A stretch of DNA of 64,000 bases from NCBI GenBank assembly GCA_018671175.1, contig JABHIE010000003.1, positions 36,560 to 100,559 of the forward strand, read 5' to 3'. The translations under genes and the position numbers were made by a program. This DNA comes from Planctomycetota bacterium (GTDB taxonomy: Bacteria > Planctomycetota > UBA1135). The notes under the pieces are model-generated. The model did not search any database. It saw nothing but the letters and a program-made list of their open reading frames with translations, and had not been told where the DNA came from. Below, in pieces: positions 24,532 through 55,378 of this stretch; the stretch's first letter is position 1, and the number at the start of each line of letters is the position of its first letter.

Positions 24532-24623
24532 TGGCGGAGAGAGAGGGATTCGAACCCTCGGTACCGACAAATCGGTACAATGGCTTAGCAAGCCATCGCA
24601 TTCGGCCACTCTGCCATCTCTCC
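24532..24623 (-). tRNA. tRNA-Ser(GCT)
   Basis: Reverse complement GGAGAGATGGCAGAGTGG...ATGGC-TT-GCT-AA-GCCAT, long variable arm, GGTTCGAATCC, CCA end. Confidence 0.97.
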
Positions 24624-24731
24624 GTGCGACTCGCGGCCGAAAAATGTACTTGAGCGGTGGCTATGGCGCAAGACAAACGGCATTTTTCGTTTTGATGAAG
24701 CTCAAAAAGAGCCAACCACCTCAAAAAAAGG

Positions 24732-24821
24732 TGGCGGAGAAAGAGGGATTCGAACCCCCGGTGGGTTGCCCCACGCTGGTTTTCAAAACCAGTGCATTCA
24801 GCCAGGCTCTGCCATTTCTCC
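24732..24821 (-). tRNA. tRNA-Ser(TGA)
   Basis: Reverse complement GGAGAAATGGCAGAG...CTGGT-TT-TGA-AA-ACCAG, long variable arm, GGTTCGAATCC, CCA end. Confidence 0.97.
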
Positions 24822-29056: not shown

Positions 29057-30082
29057 TTAAGCGCGAGGCGCCGGAAGGTCAGCAAGCACGCAATCAAAAA
29101 CGGGCACTAAATCAGGGTCGAACTGACTGCCTGCACCCTCAAGGATGATGTCGCGCGCCTCTTCTTTTGATCGAGCCTTTCGATAAGGTCGAGTCGAGCA
29201 GATCGCATCGTAAGTGTCGGCAATCATGATGAGCCGCGAACCAAGCGGGATATCTGTGCCCGAAATGCCGTCTGGGTAGCCCCGGCCATCCCAACGCTCG
29301 TGTTCATGCAAAACGATGCGCTGAACTTCGGGGTATTTTTTTGACAAGGGTTCAAGAATGCGCGCACCATAACCAGGGTGCCGCTTAATCTCATCCCATT
29401 CGTTGTCGTCGAGCGGCCCATCTTTGTGCAAGATTTCAAGAGGCACACCAATCTTGCCGATGTCGTGCAGCATTGAGCCAATGCGAATCTCACGCATGGC
29501 ATTGGAATCCATGCCAGGGATTTGCCGCGCCATCAGCATCGAAACCTCGGCCACCGATGCGCTGTGATCGCGCGTGTATTGGTCTTTGGCCTCGAGCGAA
29601 TTGACAAGCGCCTGAACGCCGCGCAGGAAACCCTCAAGCTGCGCCTTGTCTGCATCAAGCACGGCTTTGTGTTGCGCGAATTTCAGCTTGCGGCTTTCGA
29701 CGGCGGCATGAATGCGCGCGTGAAGAGTCGAAGGGCTTGCTGGCTTGAGCATGTATTCGTCAGCGCCGTCTTGCATACTTTGCACGGCAATATTGACATC
29801 GTTGACGCCCGTGAGCATCACGAAGGGGATCTCTTCGTTGTACATGCGCACATGGCGCAAAAACTCGTCGCCGTTCATGCCGGGCAGGCCGAGGTCAGAA
29901 ACAATGACCTGAAAACGCTCAAGTGTCATGCGATGTAAAGCCGCTCGCGCGTCACCAACCGCGCAAACACGAAAGCCTTTTTGGCCCAATGCCGTTTGCA
30001 GGAGAGTGCGCTGATCGACATCGTCTTCGACGAGAAGAATGCTGGGGCCCGTTGGTTGCTTCTGAATCACAGGGAACAGCAT
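29057..30082 (-). CDS. Response regulator with HD-GYP phosphodiesterase domain
   Basis: REC domain (LLVEDD, SDLGLPGMNG, KP) plus HDIGK, ERWDGRGYP, ADTYDA, RPYR, GSQFDP. Confidence 0.93.
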   Translation of the reverse strand: MLFPVIQKQPTGPSILLVEDDVDQRTLLQTALGQKGFRVCAVGDARAALHRMTLERFQVIVSDLGLPGMNGDEFLRHVRMYNEEIPFVMLTGVNDVNIAVQSMQDGADEYMLKPASPSTLHARIHAAVESRKLKFAQHKAVLDADKAQLEGFLRGVQALVNSLEAKDQYTRDHSASVAEVSMLMARQIPGMDSNAMREIRIGSMLHDIGKIGVPLEILHKDGPLDDNEWDEIKRHPGYGARILEPLSKKYPEVQRIVLHEHERWDGRGYPDGISGTDIPLGSRLIMIADTYDAICSTRPYRKARSKEEARDIILEGAGSQFDPDLVPVFDCVLADLPAPRA

Positions 30083-30114
30083 ACAAAAAGGGGATGTTGC
30101 AATAGAATAGGCAA

Positions 30115-30753
30115 ATGGAACGATACCGCAGACGCTTGCTGATGAGTCGGCAGGACCTTGAAGCCGGCCTAAAGGGCATGGCGGAGAGATTAGCCCCCGT
30201 TTTAGGCGACGACGAAGTTACCGCCATCCCTGTATTAGGTGGTGCGATGTTTTTTGCCGCCGATTTGGTGCGGCATATGCCCTCTGGTTTGGTGATGGAT
30301 TTCATCCGCATTCAAACTTATGGCGACTCGACTTCGCCTCAAAGCGAGGCAAAGGCCGATTGGGTGCCGCATGAGAGCAATGTGCGAGGCAAGCATGTTT
30401 TGCTTTTAGATGACATCCTTGACACGGGGCGCACGCTTTTTGAGGCTAAGCGTTATCTGCTTGACGAGATGGGTGCGGCCAAAGTGACGATTGCTGTTTT
30501 GATTGATAAGCCCATTCGCCGCTCAGCTGATGTCTCGGCTGACTGCTCGGTCTTATTGATGGAAGACGATGCTTTTTTAGTCGGCTATGGGCTTGATTTT
30601 GCGGGCCGTTTTCGCAATGTGCCTGATGTTTACGCGCTCGAAACGGGGCCTGACGGGCTTCCGTTGCTCGCCGAAGAAGCCCGTGACTCCATTTCATCTC
30701 GTGCACGAGGGCCTGTTGTGCCCGACGGTTCGCAAACTGCGAGTGGAGCATGA
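30115..30753 (+). CDS. hpt: Hypoxanthine phosphoribosyltransferase
   Basis: VLLLDDILDTGRTL PRPP-binding loop, FLVGYGLD. Confidence 0.92.
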   Translation: MERYRRRLLMSRQDLEAGLKGMAERLAPVLGDDEVTAIPVLGGAMFFAADLVRHMPSGLVMDFIRIQTYGDSTSPQSEAKADWVPHESNVRGKHVLLLDDILDTGRTLFEAKRYLLDEMGAAKVTIAVLIDKPIRRSADVSADCSVLLMEDDAFLVGYGLDFAGRFRNVPDVYALETGPDGLPLLAEEARDSISSRARGPVVPDGSQTASGA

Positions 30754-31763
30754 GTCAATCGGAGCCCGTCCCTGTAATCGCTGAAAAGTGGATTGCCGTC
30801 GCCGATGATATGGCGCGCATGCCCGTCGATGAATTTTTGTCGATGCATTGGCCAGGCGTGTCAAAGGGGCGTATCCGTGAAATGATTCGCGCAGGTCGCG
30901 CCACAGTAGATGGCATGCGAGTCTTGCCGGGGCAGCGTTTGAGCGCGGGTGAAATCGTGCTTTATGATTTTGATCCGACAACTCTTCCGCAGGCTAAGGC
31001 GCAGAAAATTGATCTCGAAATCCTTTACCAAGATGACGACATTGTTGCTGTAAATAAGCCGCCTGGCATTCCTGTCGAGCCAAGTCGATGGGGGGAACAC
31101 CCCTTGCATTTGACGGGTGGGATGCTCCATTGGGCTGAGGGCTCAGTGCGCGAAGATGGTGCCGTGGCTCAACGCCCCCGCGCTTTGCATCGCATCGATT
31201 TGGGCACTTCAGGCGTGCTGCTTTACGCACTGAACCTTGATGCCGAGCGATACTATCGCGAGTTGTTTTCGAGCGGTGGCATCAAGAAAATCTATCACGC
31301 TCTCATTATCGGAGAGATGCATGACCCAGTTGTTGTTGATGAGCCGATTGGCCCAGCTCGCGGTCAAAATGGGCAAATGGGCGTCGTCCCTAAAGGCGGG
31401 AAGCCAAGTTTGACTGAGTTTGTGCCGTTGAAGCGATGGCAAGGTTACACGCTTGTTGAAGCGCGTCCACAGACGGGGCGCACGCATCAGATTCGGGTGC
31501 ACGCCGCTTGGCTCGGGCACCCTCTGGTGGTGGATACTCGCTATGGCGGCGCTGATCGCCTGAATTTAAGCCACCTCAAGCGCAGTTATCGCCCCAAGCC
31601 GGGGCAGGAAGAGCGACCGTTAATTGGGCGTCTTACTTTGCACGCCAAATCAGTTTCATTCGTTGACCGTCAGGGGGCTGAGCGTACGATTGAAGCGAGC
31701 ATCCCCAAGGATTTTTTGGTGGTGATGAAAAAGCTTGATCGCTGGTTGCGAGTCAAAAGATAG
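30750..31763 (+). CDS. RluA/RluD-family pseudouridine synthase with S4 domain
   Basis: VNKPPG, HRIDLGTSG, TGRTHQIRVH, GHPLV.D.RYG, LHA motifs. Confidence 0.93.
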   Translation: MSQSEPVPVIAEKWIAVADDMARMPVDEFLSMHWPGVSKGRIREMIRAGRATVDGMRVLPGQRLSAGEIVLYDFDPTTLPQAKAQKIDLEILYQDDDIVAVNKPPGIPVEPSRWGEHPLHLTGGMLHWAEGSVREDGAVAQRPRALHRIDLGTSGVLLYALNLDAERYYRELFSSGGIKKIYHALIIGEMHDPVVVDEPIGPARGQNGQMGVVPKGGKPSLTEFVPLKRWQGYTLVEARPQTGRTHQIRVHAAWLGHPLVVDTRYGGADRLNLSHLKRSYRPKPGQEERPLIGRLTLHAKSVSFVDRQGAERTIEASIPKDFLVVMKKLDRWLRVKR

Positions 31764-31888
31764 TGGCATTTCGAGTTGCGCGGGGCTGGCCTCTATCGCA
31801 TTTGAAGTAAACGAGTTAAACTATGCGCCTCCGACGCGAGTGACCCGAGGTGGGTTAGCGTCATCACCAGCATAATGAGGCTAGAAAC

Positions 31889-34801
31889 ATGCGCTTAAAG
31901 CGTTTGACTCCAGATTTCCGCGTTACCGAACTCATCAACGAAGAAGAGTTACTCGGCAACGGTCCCTACACCATTTATCGTGTCACCAAGCGTGGCCTGA
32001 CCACCTTTGAGGCGGTCGATTTACTCCGCTCCGCTGCGGGCGTTGAGCGCGAAGACATTTCCTTCGCGGGTCTAAAAGATAAAGATGGCATTACCGGGCA
32101 GTTCCTGTCTGTGAAAGGTGGCAAGCCTGTTAACTTGCGCCAAAAGGCGATTACGATTCGGGCCATTGGCAAGGCGCCCCGCCCAATCGAGACAACCGAT
32201 TCCAACGGCAATGCTTTTGAAATTGTTCTGCGTGACATGGTCGCTGACGACATGCGTCGCGTTCGGGTTCACCTGAACCGCGTGAAAGACCTAGGCTTGG
32301 TCAACTACTTTGACGACCAACGCTTTGGCTGTTTGCGTCACGGTCAGGGCTTTATCGTGCGAGATTTGCTCGCGGGTCGCCCAGAAGATGCGCTCAAAAA
32401 CTTACTTGCCGCACCTTCGCCATTTGGTTCAGAAGAAGTCGAAAAGTTTAAAGCTTATTTGATGCGCTATTGGGGTGATTGGGCTAAATTGGCCAGTTAT
32501 TGCCGCGCACGGCGTGGGCATTCGGTTTTCCAGCATTTGGCTGAAAACCCAGAAGATTACCTTGGTGCACTTGAGCGCGGCGTATCAACACGCGAGCGCA
32601 CGATTCACTTGTTTGCCTATCAATCACACCTCTGGAACCGCGCTGCATCGCGTTTGGTCGAAGACATCCTCGGGCCTGAACAGTTGGCCTATCTACCTGG
32701 CGATGCCGGTTCGATGGCCGTTTGGCGCGATTTGAGTGCCGAACAGCAGGCAGAATTGGCCGCTATCGAGTTGCCTTTGCTCGGCCCAGATATGCAAGCC
32801 AGCGAAAAAGTGATGGCTGCCTATCAATCCGTCATGACCGCTGAGGGGCTTTCGATTGACGATTTTGTCCAACTCGACTTGTCTGGTTTCCGCCCTAAGG
32901 CTGACGCCCGCGCTTTCTTGGTCAATCCTGAATTCTTGCGTGCGGCTCCCGCTGAGCGAGATGAGGTTTATCGCAAGTCACGCAAAATGCGGTTGCGCTT
33001 TTCGTTGCCTCGTGGGCATTACGCCACATTGGTTGTTAAGCGTTTGTTGATGCCGACCGATTTGGTCGAAGATGGGCCTCAATTACGCATCTGGATTGCG
33101 CGACATGCGCTTGAGTGGCCCGACGCTCAGGGCAATATGCTCGTTTCCAACACCGAAGATCAACGCAATTGGGGTGATCGCGCTGGTGGCCCATGGGCGC
33201 GTCGTTCCAACGAAGATTATGGCGACAACCCACGAGGTGAGCGTCATGGTCGCGAGGACCGTTTCGGTCGCGAAGGTCGTGATGACCGCGGTGGTCGTGA
33301 TGACCGCTACGGGCGCGATGACCGCTCAGGTTTTGACCCAGTTGAGCGTCACCACGAAGACGACGAAAAGCCAAACATCCGTGTCGCGGGTGGTGTGGCC
33401 GCTAAAGTGCAGACCGATGATGGGCGCACGAGTTTGGTCGCTGGCGGAGATTATGTCCATGAGACATTTGAGCAACGGCAAGAGCGCGCCGAAGAGAAAA
33501 AGGCGGCTGCAGAGCGCAAAGCTGAAAAGGCCGCGCGTAAGGCTGAGTATGAATCGAAGTTTTCAATAGACCCTGGCGTGACGATTGGCGAACGCTTTGA
33601 AGGCCGTGTGACGGGCATTCAGAATTTTGGCATTTTTGTTGATATTGGTTTCGGCCAAGAAGGCATGTGCCCAAGCTCTGAGTTGGCCGAAGAATACACT
33701 CAAGACCCAAACACCGTAGTGAGCCTTGACGATGTGTTCGAGGTCATCATTGTTTCGGTTGATAAAGAAAAGGGTCAATTCAAAGTGTCCAAACGCATGG
33801 GTGAGCTTGAGGATTCTGAAATCCCAGCTGCTCTTGAGGCGCGTGACGCCGAGTTTGTTGCGCGTGCTGCTGAAAAAGAAGCGCGTACTCAAGGCCGTGA
33901 CACCATCGAGGAAATCGATGCGAAGGTTGGTGACCGCCTCAAAGGGCAGGTGCTTACGATTCGCGATTTCGGTGTTTTCTGTGATGTTGGTTTGTCGGTT
34001 GACGCGATGATTCCTGTTGCCGAGTTGTCATCCGAATGGGTCGAGCGCCCCGAAGATGTCGTTGCCATTGGCGATACCCTTGAGGTCGTGGTTTTGGGTG
34101 TTGACCCCAAACGCGGGCGTCTGCGCACATCCGTAAAGGCGGGCAATATGAGCGAAGGCGACCTGAATGCTTTGCTTGACGAAGTGCGCGCTCAAGAGGC
34201 CGAATATTCTGCTCGTCGTGAGCGGAAAGACAGTGGCGCTGATTTGGGCGCTGAGCTTGGCCAACGCATGAAGGGCAAAGTTACGGGCGTGCAAGATTTT
34301 GGTGTGTTTATCGACTTGGGTTTAGACAGCGATGGCATGTGCCCAACTTCCGAGCTCGATGAAAAATGGATTTCGCACCCTACTGATATTTGCGATGTGG
34401 GCGATGAAATTGAAATCGTTGTAATTGCACTTGATGGCAGTCGCGGGCGGATTAAGTGCTCGCGCAAAGTGGCCCTTGGCCCTGAGCGTGGTATTGCCAA
34501 GGCGATCGAGACCGAGAAACGATTTGCCGAGCGCCGGCAAGAAGGCGGTGGCGGCGGCCGTGGTCGCGGTCGTGATGACGATCGTCGCGGAGGCGGCGGT
34601 GGTGGCGGTGGCGCATATCGAGGTGGCGGCGGTGGCGGATACCGAGGCGGCGGCGGAGGCCGTAGCCGTGATGACGATCGCCGCGGAGGCAGCGGTGGTG
34701 GTGGCGGATACCGAGGCGGCGGAGGCCGTGGCCGTGATGACGATCGCCGCGGAGGCGGCGGCGGCGGCAACTCCGGCGGCTCCAGTCCTTGGGGGCGCTA
34801 A
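31889..34801 (+). CDS. truD: TruD-family pseudouridine synthase fused to three S1 domains and Gly/Arg-rich tails
   Basis: DFRVTE, AGLKDK, NYFDDQRFG, LFAYQSHLWN, FSLPRGHYAT TruD motifs; three G.V..I.DFG.F.D.G...G S1 repeats; C-terminal RGGGG/RDDDRR repeats. Confidence 0.9.
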   Translation: MRLKRLTPDFRVTELINEEELLGNGPYTIYRVTKRGLTTFEAVDLLRSAAGVEREDISFAGLKDKDGITGQFLSVKGGKPVNLRQKAITIRAIGKAPRPIETTDSNGNAFEIVLRDMVADDMRRVRVHLNRVKDLGLVNYFDDQRFGCLRHGQGFIVRDLLAGRPEDALKNLLAAPSPFGSEEVEKFKAYLMRYWGDWAKLASYCRARRGHSVFQHLAENPEDYLGALERGVSTRERTIHLFAYQSHLWNRAASRLVEDILGPEQLAYLPGDAGSMAVWRDLSAEQQAELAAIELPLLGPDMQASEKVMAAYQSVMTAEGLSIDDFVQLDLSGFRPKADARAFLVNPEFLRAAPAERDEVYRKSRKMRLRFSLPRGHYATLVVKRLLMPTDLVEDGPQLRIWIARHALEWPDAQGNMLVSNTEDQRNWGDRAGGPWARRSNEDYGDNPRGERHGREDRFGREGRDDRGGRDDRYGRDDRSGFDPVERHHEDDEKPNIRVAGGVAAKVQTDDGRTSLVAGGDYVHETFEQRQERAEEKKAAAERKAEKAARKAEYESKFSIDPGVTIGERFEGRVTGIQNFGIFVDIGFGQEGMCPSSELAEEYTQDPNTVVSLDDVFEVIIVSVDKEKGQFKVSKRMGELEDSEIPAALEARDAEFVARAAEKEARTQGRDTIEEIDAKVGDRLKGQVLTIRDFGVFCDVGLSVDAMIPVAELSSEWVERPEDVVAIGDTLEVVVLGVDPKRGRLRTSVKAGNMSEGDLNALLDEVRAQEAEYSARRERKDSGADLGAELGQRMKGKVTGVQDFGVFIDLGLDSDGMCPTSELDEKWISHPTDICDVGDEIEIVVIALDGSRGRIKCSRKVALGPERGIAKAIETEKRFAERRQEGGGGGRGRGRDDDRRGGGGGGGGAYRGGGGGGYRGGGGGRSRDDDRRGGSGGGGGYRGGGGRGRDDDRRGGGGGGNSGGSSPWGR
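34543..34790 (+). repeat. Low-complexity GGC/GGT repeats encoding (GRDDDRRGGGG / YRGGGG)n
   Basis: gccgtgatgacgatcgccgcggaggc and gataccgaggcggcgg units repeated. Confidence 0.9.
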
Positions 34802-34804
34802 ACC

Positions 34805-35668
34805 ATGCCTGCCCTCTCGCCCGCGCGCATTGGAATCATTGGTGGTTCCGGTGTCTATGGGCTTGAGGGCTTAAATGACATCCAGAGCGTTGCGATTGAC
34901 ACTCCGTGGGGCGCGCCGAGTGATGAACTGCTGCTCGGCACTCTTGATGGCATCCCTGTTGCATTCTTGCCTCGGCATGGGCGCGGCCATCGCGTAACGC
35001 CGAGCGAGGTTCCCTACCACGCCAACATCTATGCCTTGCGCTCTCTTGGTGTTCAGCGCGTGCTTTCCGTGAGCGCGGTTGGTTCTCTTTGCCACGAATA
35101 TGCCCCTGGCGATTTTGTCATGGTGGATCAATTCATCGATCGCACTTTGCGTCGTGGAGCCACTTTCTTCGGAGATGGCATCGTTGCGCATGTGCCTCTA
35201 GCTGATCCTGTTTGTGCCGAGATGGCCGCTGCCGTGATGCGGTCCGGTTCAGATTTACCGGTCAAAATATTCTCAGGCGGTGCATATGTTTGCATCGAAG
35301 GGCCTCAGTTTTCGACCCGCGCTGAGAGTGAGCTTTACCGCTCGTGGGGCGCAAAAATCGTGGGCATGACCAATGCCACAGAAGCTCGGCTCGCGCGCGA
35401 GGCAGGCATGAGTTTTGCCTGTATTGCGATGGTCACCGATTTCGATTGTTGGCATCCTGAGCACGATGATGTTGATGTCGCCGCTGTTGTTGCAACCGCA
35501 AAACAAAATGCATCCGCGGTGCGTGAGCTGGTTACTCGCAGTATTCCCGTGCTTGACGCACTCGGGCCATCGCCTTGGCGTGGGGTCCTCGATAGTGCCG
35601 TCATGACAGCTCATGATTGCATCACCACGGCGGCAATAGAGCGGACGGCCGCCTTGTTTTCGGATTAA
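34805..35668 (+). CDS. mtnP: S-methyl-5'-thioadenosine phosphorylase
   Basis: IGIIGGSG, FLPRHG, EGPQFSTRAES, GMT..EA.LARE, VTDFDCW motifs. Confidence 0.93.
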   Translation: MPALSPARIGIIGGSGVYGLEGLNDIQSVAIDTPWGAPSDELLLGTLDGIPVAFLPRHGRGHRVTPSEVPYHANIYALRSLGVQRVLSVSAVGSLCHEYAPGDFVMVDQFIDRTLRRGATFFGDGIVAHVPLADPVCAEMAAAVMRSGSDLPVKIFSGGAYVCIEGPQFSTRAESELYRSWGAKIVGMTNATEARLAREAGMSFACIAMVTDFDCWHPEHDDVDVAAVVATAKQNASAVRELVTRSIPVLDALGPSPWRGVLDSAVMTAHDCITTAAIERTAALFSD

Positions 35669-38008: not shown

Positions 38009-38833
38009 TTAGTCTTTTGCGACGTAGAGGTGATCTTCGCTCAAGACATGGTATTGATCGACAGATTTGGTCAGCAAGTCGCTCATGCTTTCGCGGAACG
38101 CGCAGCACTCAAACTTACAGCCCTTGGCTTTGATCAATGGGGCCACATCAGCGAAAACACCATTGCCTGAGACGGCGATGATCACATCAACTTTGTCAGC
38201 GATGCGGATCATGTCCATGGCGATGCCTGTTTCCCACTCTGCTTTACGCGAGCCGTCGGCACGCTCGATGACCTCGCGCTTGCGGACTTCGAAGCCGCAG
38301 TAACGCAGGTGATCGGTGAAAGAGATTTGGTCGATACCCTCGCGCTCAATGACATATGCAATGGAGCGAACCAAGCGACGATTACGCACGCAAGCACGCA
38401 ACATTTTGGAGTAGCTCAGGTTTGCACCGTAGCATTTTTTCGCAGAGTGGTACATGTTTTGTACATCTACAAAAACGGCAACGCGCTGACGCTTCAGGAA
38501 GCCACCTTGTGAGCAGTAGCCGCCATTATTAGGCAAGGCCCCTGTCGTAGGGTTGAGGTTGAGTTGACGACGCAAGCGCCAGACCTCATCTTTAAGATCG
38601 AGGTAATTTTCCTCGAGGTCTTCGCGTTCGATAGCCGCTGCATCTTCATGGGGATCAAGAATGATGGTCGGGTTATCTGGAAAGTAGTGGGGAATCCGCT
38701 CGAAAGTTGGCTCTTCGGAAGTTTGATCTTCTTTAGAGTTTTCGGTTTCTTCTACAGAATCGGTTTCTTCCACGGAAGTGGCTTCAACATCAGTTTCTTC
38801 GATGTCGCTGGAGGTGTTTTCGGTGTCGGTCAT
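38009..38833 (-). CDS. NYN/LabA (DUF88) domain protein with acidic N-terminal extension
   Basis: RVAVFVDVQNMY, RSIAYV, K.EWETGIAMD, VSGNGVF motifs. Confidence 0.85.
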   Translation of the reverse strand: MTDTENTSSDIEETDVEATSVEETDSVEETENSKEDQTSEEPTFERIPHYFPDNPTIILDPHEDAAAIEREDLEENYLDLKDEVWRLRRQLNLNPTTGALPNNGGYCSQGGFLKRQRVAVFVDVQNMYHSAKKCYGANLSYSKMLRACVRNRRLVRSIAYVIEREGIDQISFTDHLRYCGFEVRKREVIERADGSRKAEWETGIAMDMIRIADKVDVIIAVSGNGVFADVAPLIKAKGCKFECCAFRESMSDLLTKSVDQYHVLSEDHLYVAKD

Positions 38834-38948
38834 GACTCCGTTAGGGTTAAGGTGAAAAGGGAGGGCCTAAAACGAACCACATGAGAATAGGCCTTGAATG
38901 GCTCGTGTGTGACGATATTGTAACCGCCCACAGCAAGCGTAGCGTTGA

Positions 38949-39785
38949 TTAGCTGAGTTTTCGAGTCAGAGTTATAGGCGGTGCTTCGGCCGCCAAGCGA
39001 GTCGCGGCAATGCAGTCGAGGCGGTAGCTTTTCATGTGCAATGAGCGGTGGCAAACGGCGTCCATGTAAAGGGTTTCTTTGCGTCGGAAAAAGAAACGCG
39101 GGCTGACTCTTAAGTCGGCGACTGCGCCATTACGAAACTTGTAAACTATGTCAACGACAGTGCTTGCGTCGGCAGCGTCTTTGAGCATCTGCCGGTTGTC
39201 GGGCAGTTTGACCGCGTCGTGCTGATAGCGAAAAACCTCGCGGCCACGACCAAAAGGAGACAATCTGTCGCCTGCACCGCCTTCGTTTTGCAAGTATTGA
39301 ATCAAGCCGAGCGTATGGATGGCATCCGCCGAAGCTCGGTGGAAGGGCCCCTCTGGCAAGTTGAGATCGCGGACGAGGTTTTCAAGCGAGTGAGAGCGCC
39401 TGCCTTTGAGCAATTTGCGAGATGCGGCTAATGAGCAATAGACCGGATTGCTTGGTGGCTCAATGCCGCTGCGCTGACACTCAACAGCCAACATCGAAGC
39501 ATCAAAAGCCACATTGTGGCCAAAGAGGGGAAGCTTGCCGACCCAACGCAAAAATTCTGGGATGGCTTCTTTGCTGCTTGGCTCATCAGCAACATCAGAA
39601 TCTTTGATTCCATGAATCGCAACAACCGATGCTGGAATAGGGCACTCGGGGAAAAGTAATTGCTCGTATCGATCTGTAATACTGCGACCTCGAACTTTGA
39701 CAGCCCCAATTTCAACCAGTCGCGCCGAAGGTGGCATGCCTGTTGTTTCTGTATCAAAGACAACAAATTCAGAGGGGAAGCTCAT
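38949..39785 (-). CDS. DEDDh 3'-5' exonuclease with C-terminal WYL-like domain
   Basis: VFDTETTG, GHNVAFD, HRASADA exonuclease motifs; C-terminal IVY..RVSP..YMDAVCH..KSYRLDCI. Confidence 0.85.
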   Translation of the reverse strand: MSFPSEFVVFDTETTGMPPSARLVEIGAVKVRGRSITDRYEQLLFPECPIPASVVAIHGIKDSDVADEPSSKEAIPEFLRWVGKLPLFGHNVAFDASMLAVECQRSGIEPPSNPVYCSLAASRKLLKGRRSHSLENLVRDLNLPEGPFHRASADAIHTLGLIQYLQNEGGAGDRLSPFGRGREVFRYQHDAVKLPDNRQMLKDAADASTVVDIVYKFRNGAVADLRVSPRFFFRRKETLYMDAVCHRSLHMKSYRLDCIAATRLAAEAPPITLTRKLS

Positions 39786-40428
39786 TTTCTTTAATGAATC
39801 GGCGCGTGGCCCAAGTGCCAAGGTAAAAGAGTGGTGTGTCTGCGAGAGCGATTAGCGTTTTGAATAACCAAAGATCAATAATCAATTCAATCATGCCGGC
39901 AGGCTCTCGCACACCCCAAAACAAAACCACAACTACAAGAATTGAATCGACGAGTTGTGAAACGAGTGTCGAAGCATTATTTCTGAGCCAGAGGTGCCGC
40001 CCATGCGTGAGTCGTTTCCAAAAATGGAAAAGGCGGATGTCAATAAATTGCGCCGTCAAATAGGCCAGCATCGATGCCAAAATCACGCGCCATGCGTTGT
40101 GGAAGACCGCATCGTAAGTGGAGTCGCCGACGGGAGAATCGGCAATCGCCGGGAATTGACCACCAAGCCATAAAATGCCCATAACTAGCGCAGATGCCCC
40201 AAAACCGGCCCAAACCACCGCATTGGCGCGTTGTTTGCCCCAAATTTCTGAGAGCAAATCGGTCACGAGAAAAGTAAGCGGATAAGCCAGAGCGCCCGCC
40301 GATAAAACGAAAACGCGAAAACCAAGGTCAACCGTTAAGAATTTATTTGCAATCAAATTCGTCACGACCAAGGCTGCGATAAACAATGCAGCTAGGAACA
40401 GGTAGAGACGGTCAGAACGCGACATCAA
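39769..40428 (-). CDS. Queuosine precursor transporter (YhhQ/VUT family)
   Basis: YPLTFLVTDLLSEIWG, AS.LAYL.AQFID, LWLRNNAST..SQLVD motifs. Confidence 0.92.
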   Translation of the reverse strand: MMSRSDRLYLFLAALFIAALVVTNLIANKFLTVDLGFRVFVLSAGALAYPLTFLVTDLLSEIWGKQRANAVVWAGFGASALVMGILWLGGQFPAIADSPVGDSTYDAVFHNAWRVILASMLAYLTAQFIDIRLFHFWKRLTHGRHLWLRNNASTLVSQLVDSILVVVVLFWGVREPAGMIELIIDLWLFKTLIALADTPLFYLGTWATRRFIKENELPL

Positions 40429-55303: not shown

Positions 55304-55378
55304 GCGGCCGTAGCTCAGTGGTAGAGCACGACCTTGCCAAGGTCGTTGTCGTGAGTTCGAATCTCATCGGCCGCTCCA
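55304..55378 (+). tRNA. tRNA-Gly(GCC)
   Basis: GCGGCCG TAGCTCAGTGGTAGAGC, CGACC-TT-GCC-AA-GGTCG, GTTCGAATC, CCA end. Confidence 0.97.

Follow-up and report, generated by a model that had tools for sequence, protein, structure and literature searches.

Pseudouridine synthases of the TruD family have been described from E. coli (Protein Data Bank (PDB) entries 1si7, 1sb7 and 1szw), M. mazei (1z2z) and T. thermophilus, and as Pus7 or PUS7 from yeast (7mzv) and human (5kkp), the motif of the latter being given in PMC12716993. According to PMC12084886 the Thermus enzyme modifies UNUAR in vitro in fragments of mRNA; Pus7 is portrayed as modifying mRNA opportunistically (PMC8794802, PMC12710931), acting on any accessible motif and constrained by where it is localised and by competition (PMC8794802). 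Pseudouridine synthases commonly carry accessory RNA-binding domains, including S4-like domains (RluC, RluD and RsuA), PUA (TruB), THUMP (Pus10) and R3H-like domains, and such domains are described as shaping targeting (PMC12710931). Here we describe a TruD-family protein in which the accessory part is a set of three S1 domains. It is encoded in the window, by which we mean the whole 64,000-nt stretch analysed (Planctomycetota bacterium, assembly GCA_018671175.1, contig JABHIE010000003.1, positions 36,560 to 100,559), by a 970-codon gene at 31889-34801 (+) that we call truD-S1x3. In the mostly open-access literature searched we found no S1-bearing pseudouridine synthase, no TruD-S1 fusion and no tailed planctomycete TruD.

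The truD-S1x3 product resembles the described TruD enzymes in fold, catalytic residues and the presence of candidate UNUAR-type tRNA substrates in its genome, and shares a long TRUD insertion with the M. mazei protein; it differs from stand-alone TruD in ~580 extra C-terminal residues, which comprise an ordered extension, two disordered regions and the three S1 domains. Like Pus7, it joins a TruD-family core to added nucleic-acid-binding parts. However, the additions of Pus7 are insertions within the core (ID-I/R3H-like), whereas those of truD-S1x3 are S1 barrels appended on a flexible arm, and its activity on mRNA is a prediction.

The reading frame runs through 970 codons without a stop, and Pfam places TruD at residues 2-385 (E 6e-61), followed by three stretches of S1 (envelopes at residues 566-637, 679-751 and 789-861; E 6e-49 for the protein). 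An earlier note, made from the letters of the window, had read TruD, an R/G/D-rich linker, a helix, three S1 domains and a tail in one frame, and the open frame, Pfam and structure models all bear this out. The note had also raised a missed stop or misassembly at the junction. Contigs of two DNA runs from separate studies, neither flagged as a possible source, cover 30000-34636 (X5) and 31522-34636 (X12), each differing by a single letter and free of gaps, and so show no indel anywhere between TruD and the third S1. The architecture recurs in a sister genome (G001), as an open frame of 959 residues with 89% identity, and the 90% cluster of the protein has 15 members, with the homologues labelled Planctomycetota by their sources. 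We also considered, and rejected, the joining of two neighbouring genes by read-through: the only S1 open reading frame (ORF) in 160 related loci is the fusion of the sister, and none of these loci has a separate S1 gene beside truD, the arrangement that the note had named as an alternative. An S1 triple (E 1e-25 or better) occurs in two of 251 genomes of the order, with no stand-alone triple in the other 249, and the terminal motif of the family follows the S1 domains. truD-S1x3 is a genuine single gene and not an artefact.

Simple codon counting against G001, with synonymous divergence (dS) near saturation, gives a ratio of nonsynonymous to synonymous divergence (dN/dS) of ~0.065 (0.077/1.18) for the S1 region (residues 563-885) and 0.047 (0.052/1.11) for the TruD part; on this sequence comparison the S1 region is kept under purifying selection. 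Parts of the gene are present in all six RNA runs. The TruD/tail junction at 33052 is crossed by contigs of five of them and S1 repeat 1 is reached in two, with no contig spanning the whole gene, and from these partial contigs transcription is likely. All 20 of the runs listed as containing this DNA are from seawater or are otherwise marine.

The catalytic and TRUD domain (residues 1-388; 31889-33052, +) is of the long, archaeal-like type. It scores 206.9 bits against Pfam PF01142 (cut-off 27), covering positions 17-411 of the 412 in the profile. The GLKD and NYFDDQRFG motifs from which the note had read an intact module lie at residues 61-64 (Asp64 codon at 32078-32080) and 139-147, and the catalytic set is complete: F10, E14, K63, D64, Q71, N139 and F141 correspond, with spacing kept, to F27, E31, K79, D80, Q87, N129 and F131 of the E. 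coli enzyme, a residue set taken from PMC12084886. The core residues align to 1z2z, the best PDB sequence match, and to 5kkp, and yeast Pus7 and E. coli TruD are likewise matched in sequence. The model of the core has a predicted local distance difference test score (pLDDT) of 93-98 per block, and Foldseek matches it to 1z2z (E 2e-22) and 5kkp (E 1.6e-21) as well as to 7mzv and E. coli TruD. The equivalog cut-offs of NCBIfam are missed (229 of 428 for NF002160; 138 of 172 for TIGR00094), so that the protein is a member of the TruD family rather than a scored equivalog; sources still label its homologues TruD. Domain, residues and fold thus all place the truD-S1x3 product in the TruD family.

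It is the sole TruD match in this 2.39-Mb, 89%-complete genome, in which candidate tRNA substrates of the UNUAR type are present: two of the 39 tRNAs, tRNA-Glu(UUC) and tRNA-Gln(UUG), have UNUAR at positions 11-15, and the anticodon loop of tRNA-Tyr contains UGUAA. On sequence grounds it is likely to be an active U13/UNUAR pseudouridine synthase. Among related proteins, Ala takes the place of the N-Y-F motif's Asn (E. coli N129) in L007, L009, L010, L012, L015-L017, L064, L067, L070, L074 and P0051, and four genomes in the order-level set (G025, G031, G034 and G038) have two or three TruD paralogues each, with long R/G tails on some of them only.

The core is followed by a family-specific extension (residues 389-420; 33053-33148, +) whose central motif, W-[IV]-[SA]-R-H, is found in 45 of 47 family loci and was not seen in the more distant TruD tails inspected. 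It is predicted to be ordered, with two short strands at residues 400-409 and block pLDDT values of 92 and 89. Beyond it lies a first disordered region (residues 430-524; 33176-33460, +), rich in R/G/D over residues 430-495, with the R/G/D linker of the note around residue 454, and likely a leftover of the ancestral TruD tail, and then a long charged helix (residues 527-558; 33467-33562, +) that is the same in both models.

Each of the three S1 units that come next consists of a barrel and a helix: repeat 1 (residues 563-667; 33575-33889, +), repeat 2 (677-782; 33917-34234, +), which is the most diverged, and repeat 3 (787-885; 34247-34543, +), which is the best conserved (97% to the sister species). 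They score 63.4, 63.7 and 58.9 bits against PF00575 (cut-off 22). In the full-length AlphaFold model the S1 part falls below pLDDT 50 and cannot be used, its alignment having been made of unrelated tails; modelled separately, residues 524-884 form three five-stranded oligonucleotide-binding (OB) barrels with long helices between them (mean pLDDT 84.5; predicted template modelling score 0.46), and the best fold matches of this triple are S1 folds. The model suggests that the region is arranged as beads on a string. The RNA face of the PNPase S1 domain is described as F19, F22, H34, D64 and R68 (PMC6705787). The corresponding residues are F, F, P, D and Q in repeat 1 and F, F, P, D and R in repeats 2 and 3, such that three of the five positions are retained in the first and four in each of the others.

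Several comparisons point to PNPase as the donor of these units. Repeats 1 and 3 are at best 45% and 52% identical to PNPase S1 units, compared with 37% or less for RpsA and Tex, and in single-sequence scoring they reach 77 and 82 bits with PNPase and 53 or less with Tex and RpsA. The helix that follows the S1 barrel in repeats 1 and 3 aligns to the PNPase helix, and PNPase C-termini in the family run from S1 through this helix to an RG-rich tail, so that both proteins end in RG-rich sequence. A tree groups all three repeats with PNPase (87/91, unstarred), and their mutual identity of only 31-38% indicates that the amplification is old. Relative to PNPase, truD-S1x3 has the S1 tripled, His34 replaced by Pro and the whole joined to a modifying enzyme. 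Ribosomal protein bS1 (RpsA) has similar tandem barrels and is the top database and fold match for the triple as a whole, but its identity is only 22-29%, the long helical spacers belong to the fusion, the best match per domain is PNPase (ambiguous in repeat 2), and the fusion misses the NCBIfam cut-off for rpsA (139.8 of 577). These sequence relationships make it likely that the S1 units were copied from PNPase. That one of the genes rpsA, pnp, tex and nusA had been moved or disrupted was rejected, RpsA, PNPase, Tex and NusA each having an intact frame of its own elsewhere in the genome.

The protein ends in a G/R/D/Y repeat tail (residues 886-970; 34544-34798, +) that closes with the SPW motif of the family and contains 47 G, 17 R, 9 D and 3 Y in 85 residues. 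Like residues 430-524, it is predicted to be disordered (pLDDT under 50), and both regions are multivalent and rich in R, G and aromatic residues, in the manner of the disordered parts of condensate scaffolds of the RNase E and DEAD-box type. The RG tail of about 85 residues proposed by the note is therefore present, but its length is uncertain: members with a terminal SPWGR range from 940 to 1013 residues with varying numbers of tail repeats, and at 34636 contigs of three runs split off into another repeat unit and one contig loops back 72 nt. The tail as it stands in the window may thus be collapsed or allelic.

To place the fusion within its family we compared all 47 loci from the 47 of 49 family genomes in which TruD was found. 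An S1 domain lies inside the TruD frame in two of them, the window genome (G000) and G001. Of the other 46 loci, 38 are closed at the 3' end, and in 37 of them the tail lacks S1 and is 25-321 residues long; S/T-P-W occurs within the last 45 residues in 23 of the 38, and likewise in the window protein, after the S1 domains. Such tails are also seen outside the family: among the best 150 TruD representatives at 50% identity, 138 extend to the core's end, 68 of them with at least 60 residues beyond it, and 49 of the 68 tails are at least 40% R/G/D. Of 57 proteins scanned with Pfam, 55 are long TruD proteins in which no further domain is found. As judged from these sequences, the R/G/D tail is family-wide and old and the S1 insertion is rare, so that the unusual architecture claimed by the note holds for the S1 insertion and not for the RG/RD tail itself, which is common.

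Two other bacterial clusters combine TruD with S1 domains, P0003 (874 residues, four S1; seven members, four of them full-length) and P0051 (690 residues, two S1), which with the cluster of the window make three among the 120 proteins listed. The three S1-bearing lineages fall apart in the TruD tree. Approximately unbiased (AU) tests on this tree, run on 47 of 52 rows after dropping five long-branch rows and using quick LG+G4 trees, reject a single clade of all four S1-bearing sequences (p 0.00018) and a clade of the window genus with P0003 (p 0.03). The P0003 repeats are 66-84% alike, begin ~50 residues after the core as opposed to ~175 in the window protein, and cluster with the PNPase of a sister genus (97/90), with which they have a one-residue insertion in common; those of P0051 are very diverged and lean to Tex. 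S1 domains have quite probably been gained on two or more separate occasions, the alternative being one gain followed by many losses. Trees of the S1 domains by themselves do not separate these alternatives. A protein of Triparma retinervis (P0116) was also set aside as a further case: its two S1 domains are N-terminal to a Pus7-like part, in reversed order, and it comes from a eukaryotic gene model in which two genes have possibly been merged. The matches also included a GmrSD-type protein with nine S1 domains (P0322, 1421 residues) and a 12-S1 protein (P0301, 1194 residues).

We propose, with about an even chance of being right, that truD-S1x3 encodes an active TruD with an RNA-tethering arm, predicted to extend its target range beyond tRNA, to UNUAR motifs that lie exposed in mRNA and other long transcripts. 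The mRNA targeting and the condensate formation suggested in the note are both plausible. A 3' segment of the PNPase gene, encoding S1, helix and perhaps the RG tail, would have been duplicated into the tail of truD and then amplified to three copies, with other lineages gaining their S1 domains separately. The core would likely still make pseudouridine at tRNA U13 and U35. The S1 barrels and the RG tail would bind RNA with low specificity and so bring the catalytic core to a higher local concentration; like Pus7 and Thermus TruD, the core would then select UNUAR motifs that are accessible. With a length of several hundred residues, the arm could hold the core on long single-stranded RNA and increase the hit rate there. 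Because the stand-alone Thermus enzyme acts on mRNA fragments, the arm would not be needed for mRNA activity as such.

A number of observations weigh against this proposal. At the position of the RNA-face His, all three repeats have Pro, as does G001, while 20 of 20 family PNPases have His, and the barrels carry a net negative charge (-7, -3 and -5, with -7 likewise for the PNPase S1). The RNA binding of the S1 domains may be weak, or their ligand may be a protein. Repeat 2 is about equally close to PNPase (54 bits), RpsA (52) and Tex (50). Forty-five of the 47 family genomes have no S1 in the TruD frame (with eight of the 46 other loci cut by contig ends), from which it follows that the arm is dispensable for the core job of the family. 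S1 copy number (two, three or four) and spacing vary between lineages, P0051 rests on a single contig, and trees of the S1 domains do not reject a single fused-S1 clade (p-AU 0.82 and 0.74 with six RpsA rows dropped; 0.155). The canonical tRNA substrates are still present in the genome, and a mapping study in E. coli reports truD-dependent sites that have no consensus (PMC13062092).

Alternatively, the protein may be an ordinary tRNA U13/U35 synthase whose tail and S1 domains add general affinity for tRNA or pre-tRNA, or chaperoning, with the target set unchanged, and we give this the better part of the doubt, at something like one chance in four. The enzyme is the only TruD of a genome that has the canonical tRNA substrates; most relatives have no S1, and a disordered tail in which repeat numbers vary freely is an easy site of insertion. 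Yet some 320 residues of S1 region are under purifying selection close to that on the enzyme, S1 domains have likely been gained repeatedly, and a tRNA of ~76 nt would hardly require a long arm with three S1 barrels set apart along it.

That the arm serves chiefly to scaffold an RNA condensate or a hub of decay, modification being secondary and pseudouridine perhaps shielding U from RNase E-type cleavage, appears unlikely, although the RNA-decay enzymes of the family make it thinkable. No match to RNase II/R (RNB family, PF00773) was found in the 49 family genomes, most of them under 90% complete, nor in the five of high quality, so that the chief 3'-5' exoribonuclease of the family may be PNPase. 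RNase E/G is present in 48 of the 49, and in the window genome it is a 564-residue frame that ends without an RG tail, which would leave the TruD tail as the main multivalent RNA scaffold; it is the most R/G/D-rich segment (0.925) among genome ORFs of at least 150 residues, followed by one at 0.725, with PNPase at 0.625. Intrinsically disordered regions are reported to promote phase separation of the ribonucleoprotein bodies of bacteria, known as BR-bodies (10.1101/2023.01.18.524314), and RNase E to be impeded by pseudouridine (PMC8522691). However, the first of these papers also describes composition alone as a poor predictor of phase separation, the main text on the BR-body proteome names no pseudouridine synthase (10.1101/2023.01.18.524314), and both the lack of an RNase R match and the short RNase E/G are shared by the whole family, irrespective of the gain of S1.

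We regard as rather improbable a role on ribosomes or pre-rRNA, in assembly or in rRNA modification, with the His-to-Pro S1 domains binding a ribosomal protein or rRNA and not free mRNA. A mitoribosome assembly factor, mt-LAF4, belongs to the TruD family (PMC7957421), Foldseek returns matches to trypanosomatid assembly intermediates, domain 2 of RpsA also has Pro at the RNA-face position, and an rRNA-type synthase is encoded upstream. But mt-LAF4 is described as likely inactive (PMC7957421), in contrast to the intact active site here; this rluA neighbour is ancestral and truD likely has its own promoter (below); and the S1 domains are PNPase-like rather than RpsA-like in a genome with an intact RpsA, which weakens a ribosome-targeting reading. 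Finally, an assembly artefact or two-gene read-through is very improbable, for although the tail repeat is unstable between assemblies, outside contigs cross the junctions without indels, the sister species has the fusion, the family SPW follows the S1 domains, and the order genomes hold no stand-alone triple.

The gene upstream of truD-S1x3 encodes an RluA/RluD-type pseudouridine synthase with an S4-like domain (30750-31763, +), and mtaP, for methylthioadenosine phosphorylase (34805-35668, +), lies downstream, as it does of truD with or without S1. The note was right that a second synthase stands directly upstream; the adjacency is ancestral: in 60 more distant loci rluA-family matches occur in 53, mtaP in 42 and S1 in none. 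The rluA-truD pairing is thus uninformative on the gain of S1.

truD likely has its own promoter. A likely -10 element, TAAACT (31817-31822, +), would place the start at ~31829; across the genome this hexamer peaks 12 nt ahead of the starts of long ORFs (22 of 427 sites), 23 of 45 family loci have a -10-like hexamer 35-85 nt upstream of truD, and RNA-run contigs begin at 31839-31841 in three of six runs, with two others continuing across. A consensus promoter scanner did not call TAAACT at 31817. Genome-wide, TAAACT and TAGAAT both peak 12 nt before long ORFs in G000, an observation that suggests many leaderless mRNAs; the 16S 3' end was not found in the assembly.

The inferred leader of 60 nt (31829-31888, +) contains a hairpin (31833-31862; -17 kcal/mol, z -1.9) and then GCAUAAUG (31870-31877), which is largely unpaired and just upstream of the truD start. 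The longest run identical to G001 in a 10.7-kb alignment, 78 nt at 31809-31886, falls in this rluA-truD gap, and the leader has no Rfam match. GCAUAAUG occurs at most 32 nt from the start in 20 of the 23 family loci that have the -10 hexamer and in none of the 22 that do not. This leader, in which the hairpin varies, is seen across the family where truD is separate from rluA (L001-L008, L014, L053-L071); where the two genes overlap, the position matching GCAUAAUG is the last codons of rluA. It is possible that GCAUAAUG is an autoregulatory site for TruD, or a short upstream ORF. The CAUAA in the leader fits N-N-U-A-R, and Thermus TruD is reported to accept C at -2 in tRNA and to refuse it in an mRNA fragment (PMC12084886), which leaves the autoregulatory site only a lead. 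GCATAATG precedes the start codons of a DEAD-box helicase gene and a permease-like gene in the window genome. It finds no support as a second promoter, as CATAAT shows no 12-nt peak, or as a regulon, as the 30 pattern-matched loci comprise three truD leaders and a remainder with no common gene set.

Elsewhere in the window, an NYN-domain gene lies beside a DEDDh exonuclease with a WYL domain (38009-39821, -), two tRNA-Ser genes lie at 24532-24821 and a tRNA-Gly gene at 55304. A selenocysteine tRNA was called in the genome (G000 C23:327380-327476).

The locus bears on whether bacteria own dedicated mRNA pseudouridine writers and on what selects UNUAR sites for TruD and Pus7 enzymes. Its relatives offer a natural series on one core, from almost no tail, through an RG/RD tail only, to a tail with two, three or four S1 domains, and they provide a clear instance of a modifying enzyme recruiting a module of a decay enzyme, an event that probably happened repeatedly. 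Should the arm have no effect on targeting, it would be a minor, lineage-specific decoration. A bolder and distinctly speculative reading is that a dedicated mRNA pseudouridine writer has arisen repeatedly, in which an RNA-capture module from PNPase sits on a condensate-forming tail, marks transcripts against cleavage and regulates itself via the CAUAA of its leader. If this were true, the enzyme would meet the same transcripts as the decay machinery, in marine planctomycetes that have neither RNase R nor an RNase E scaffold.

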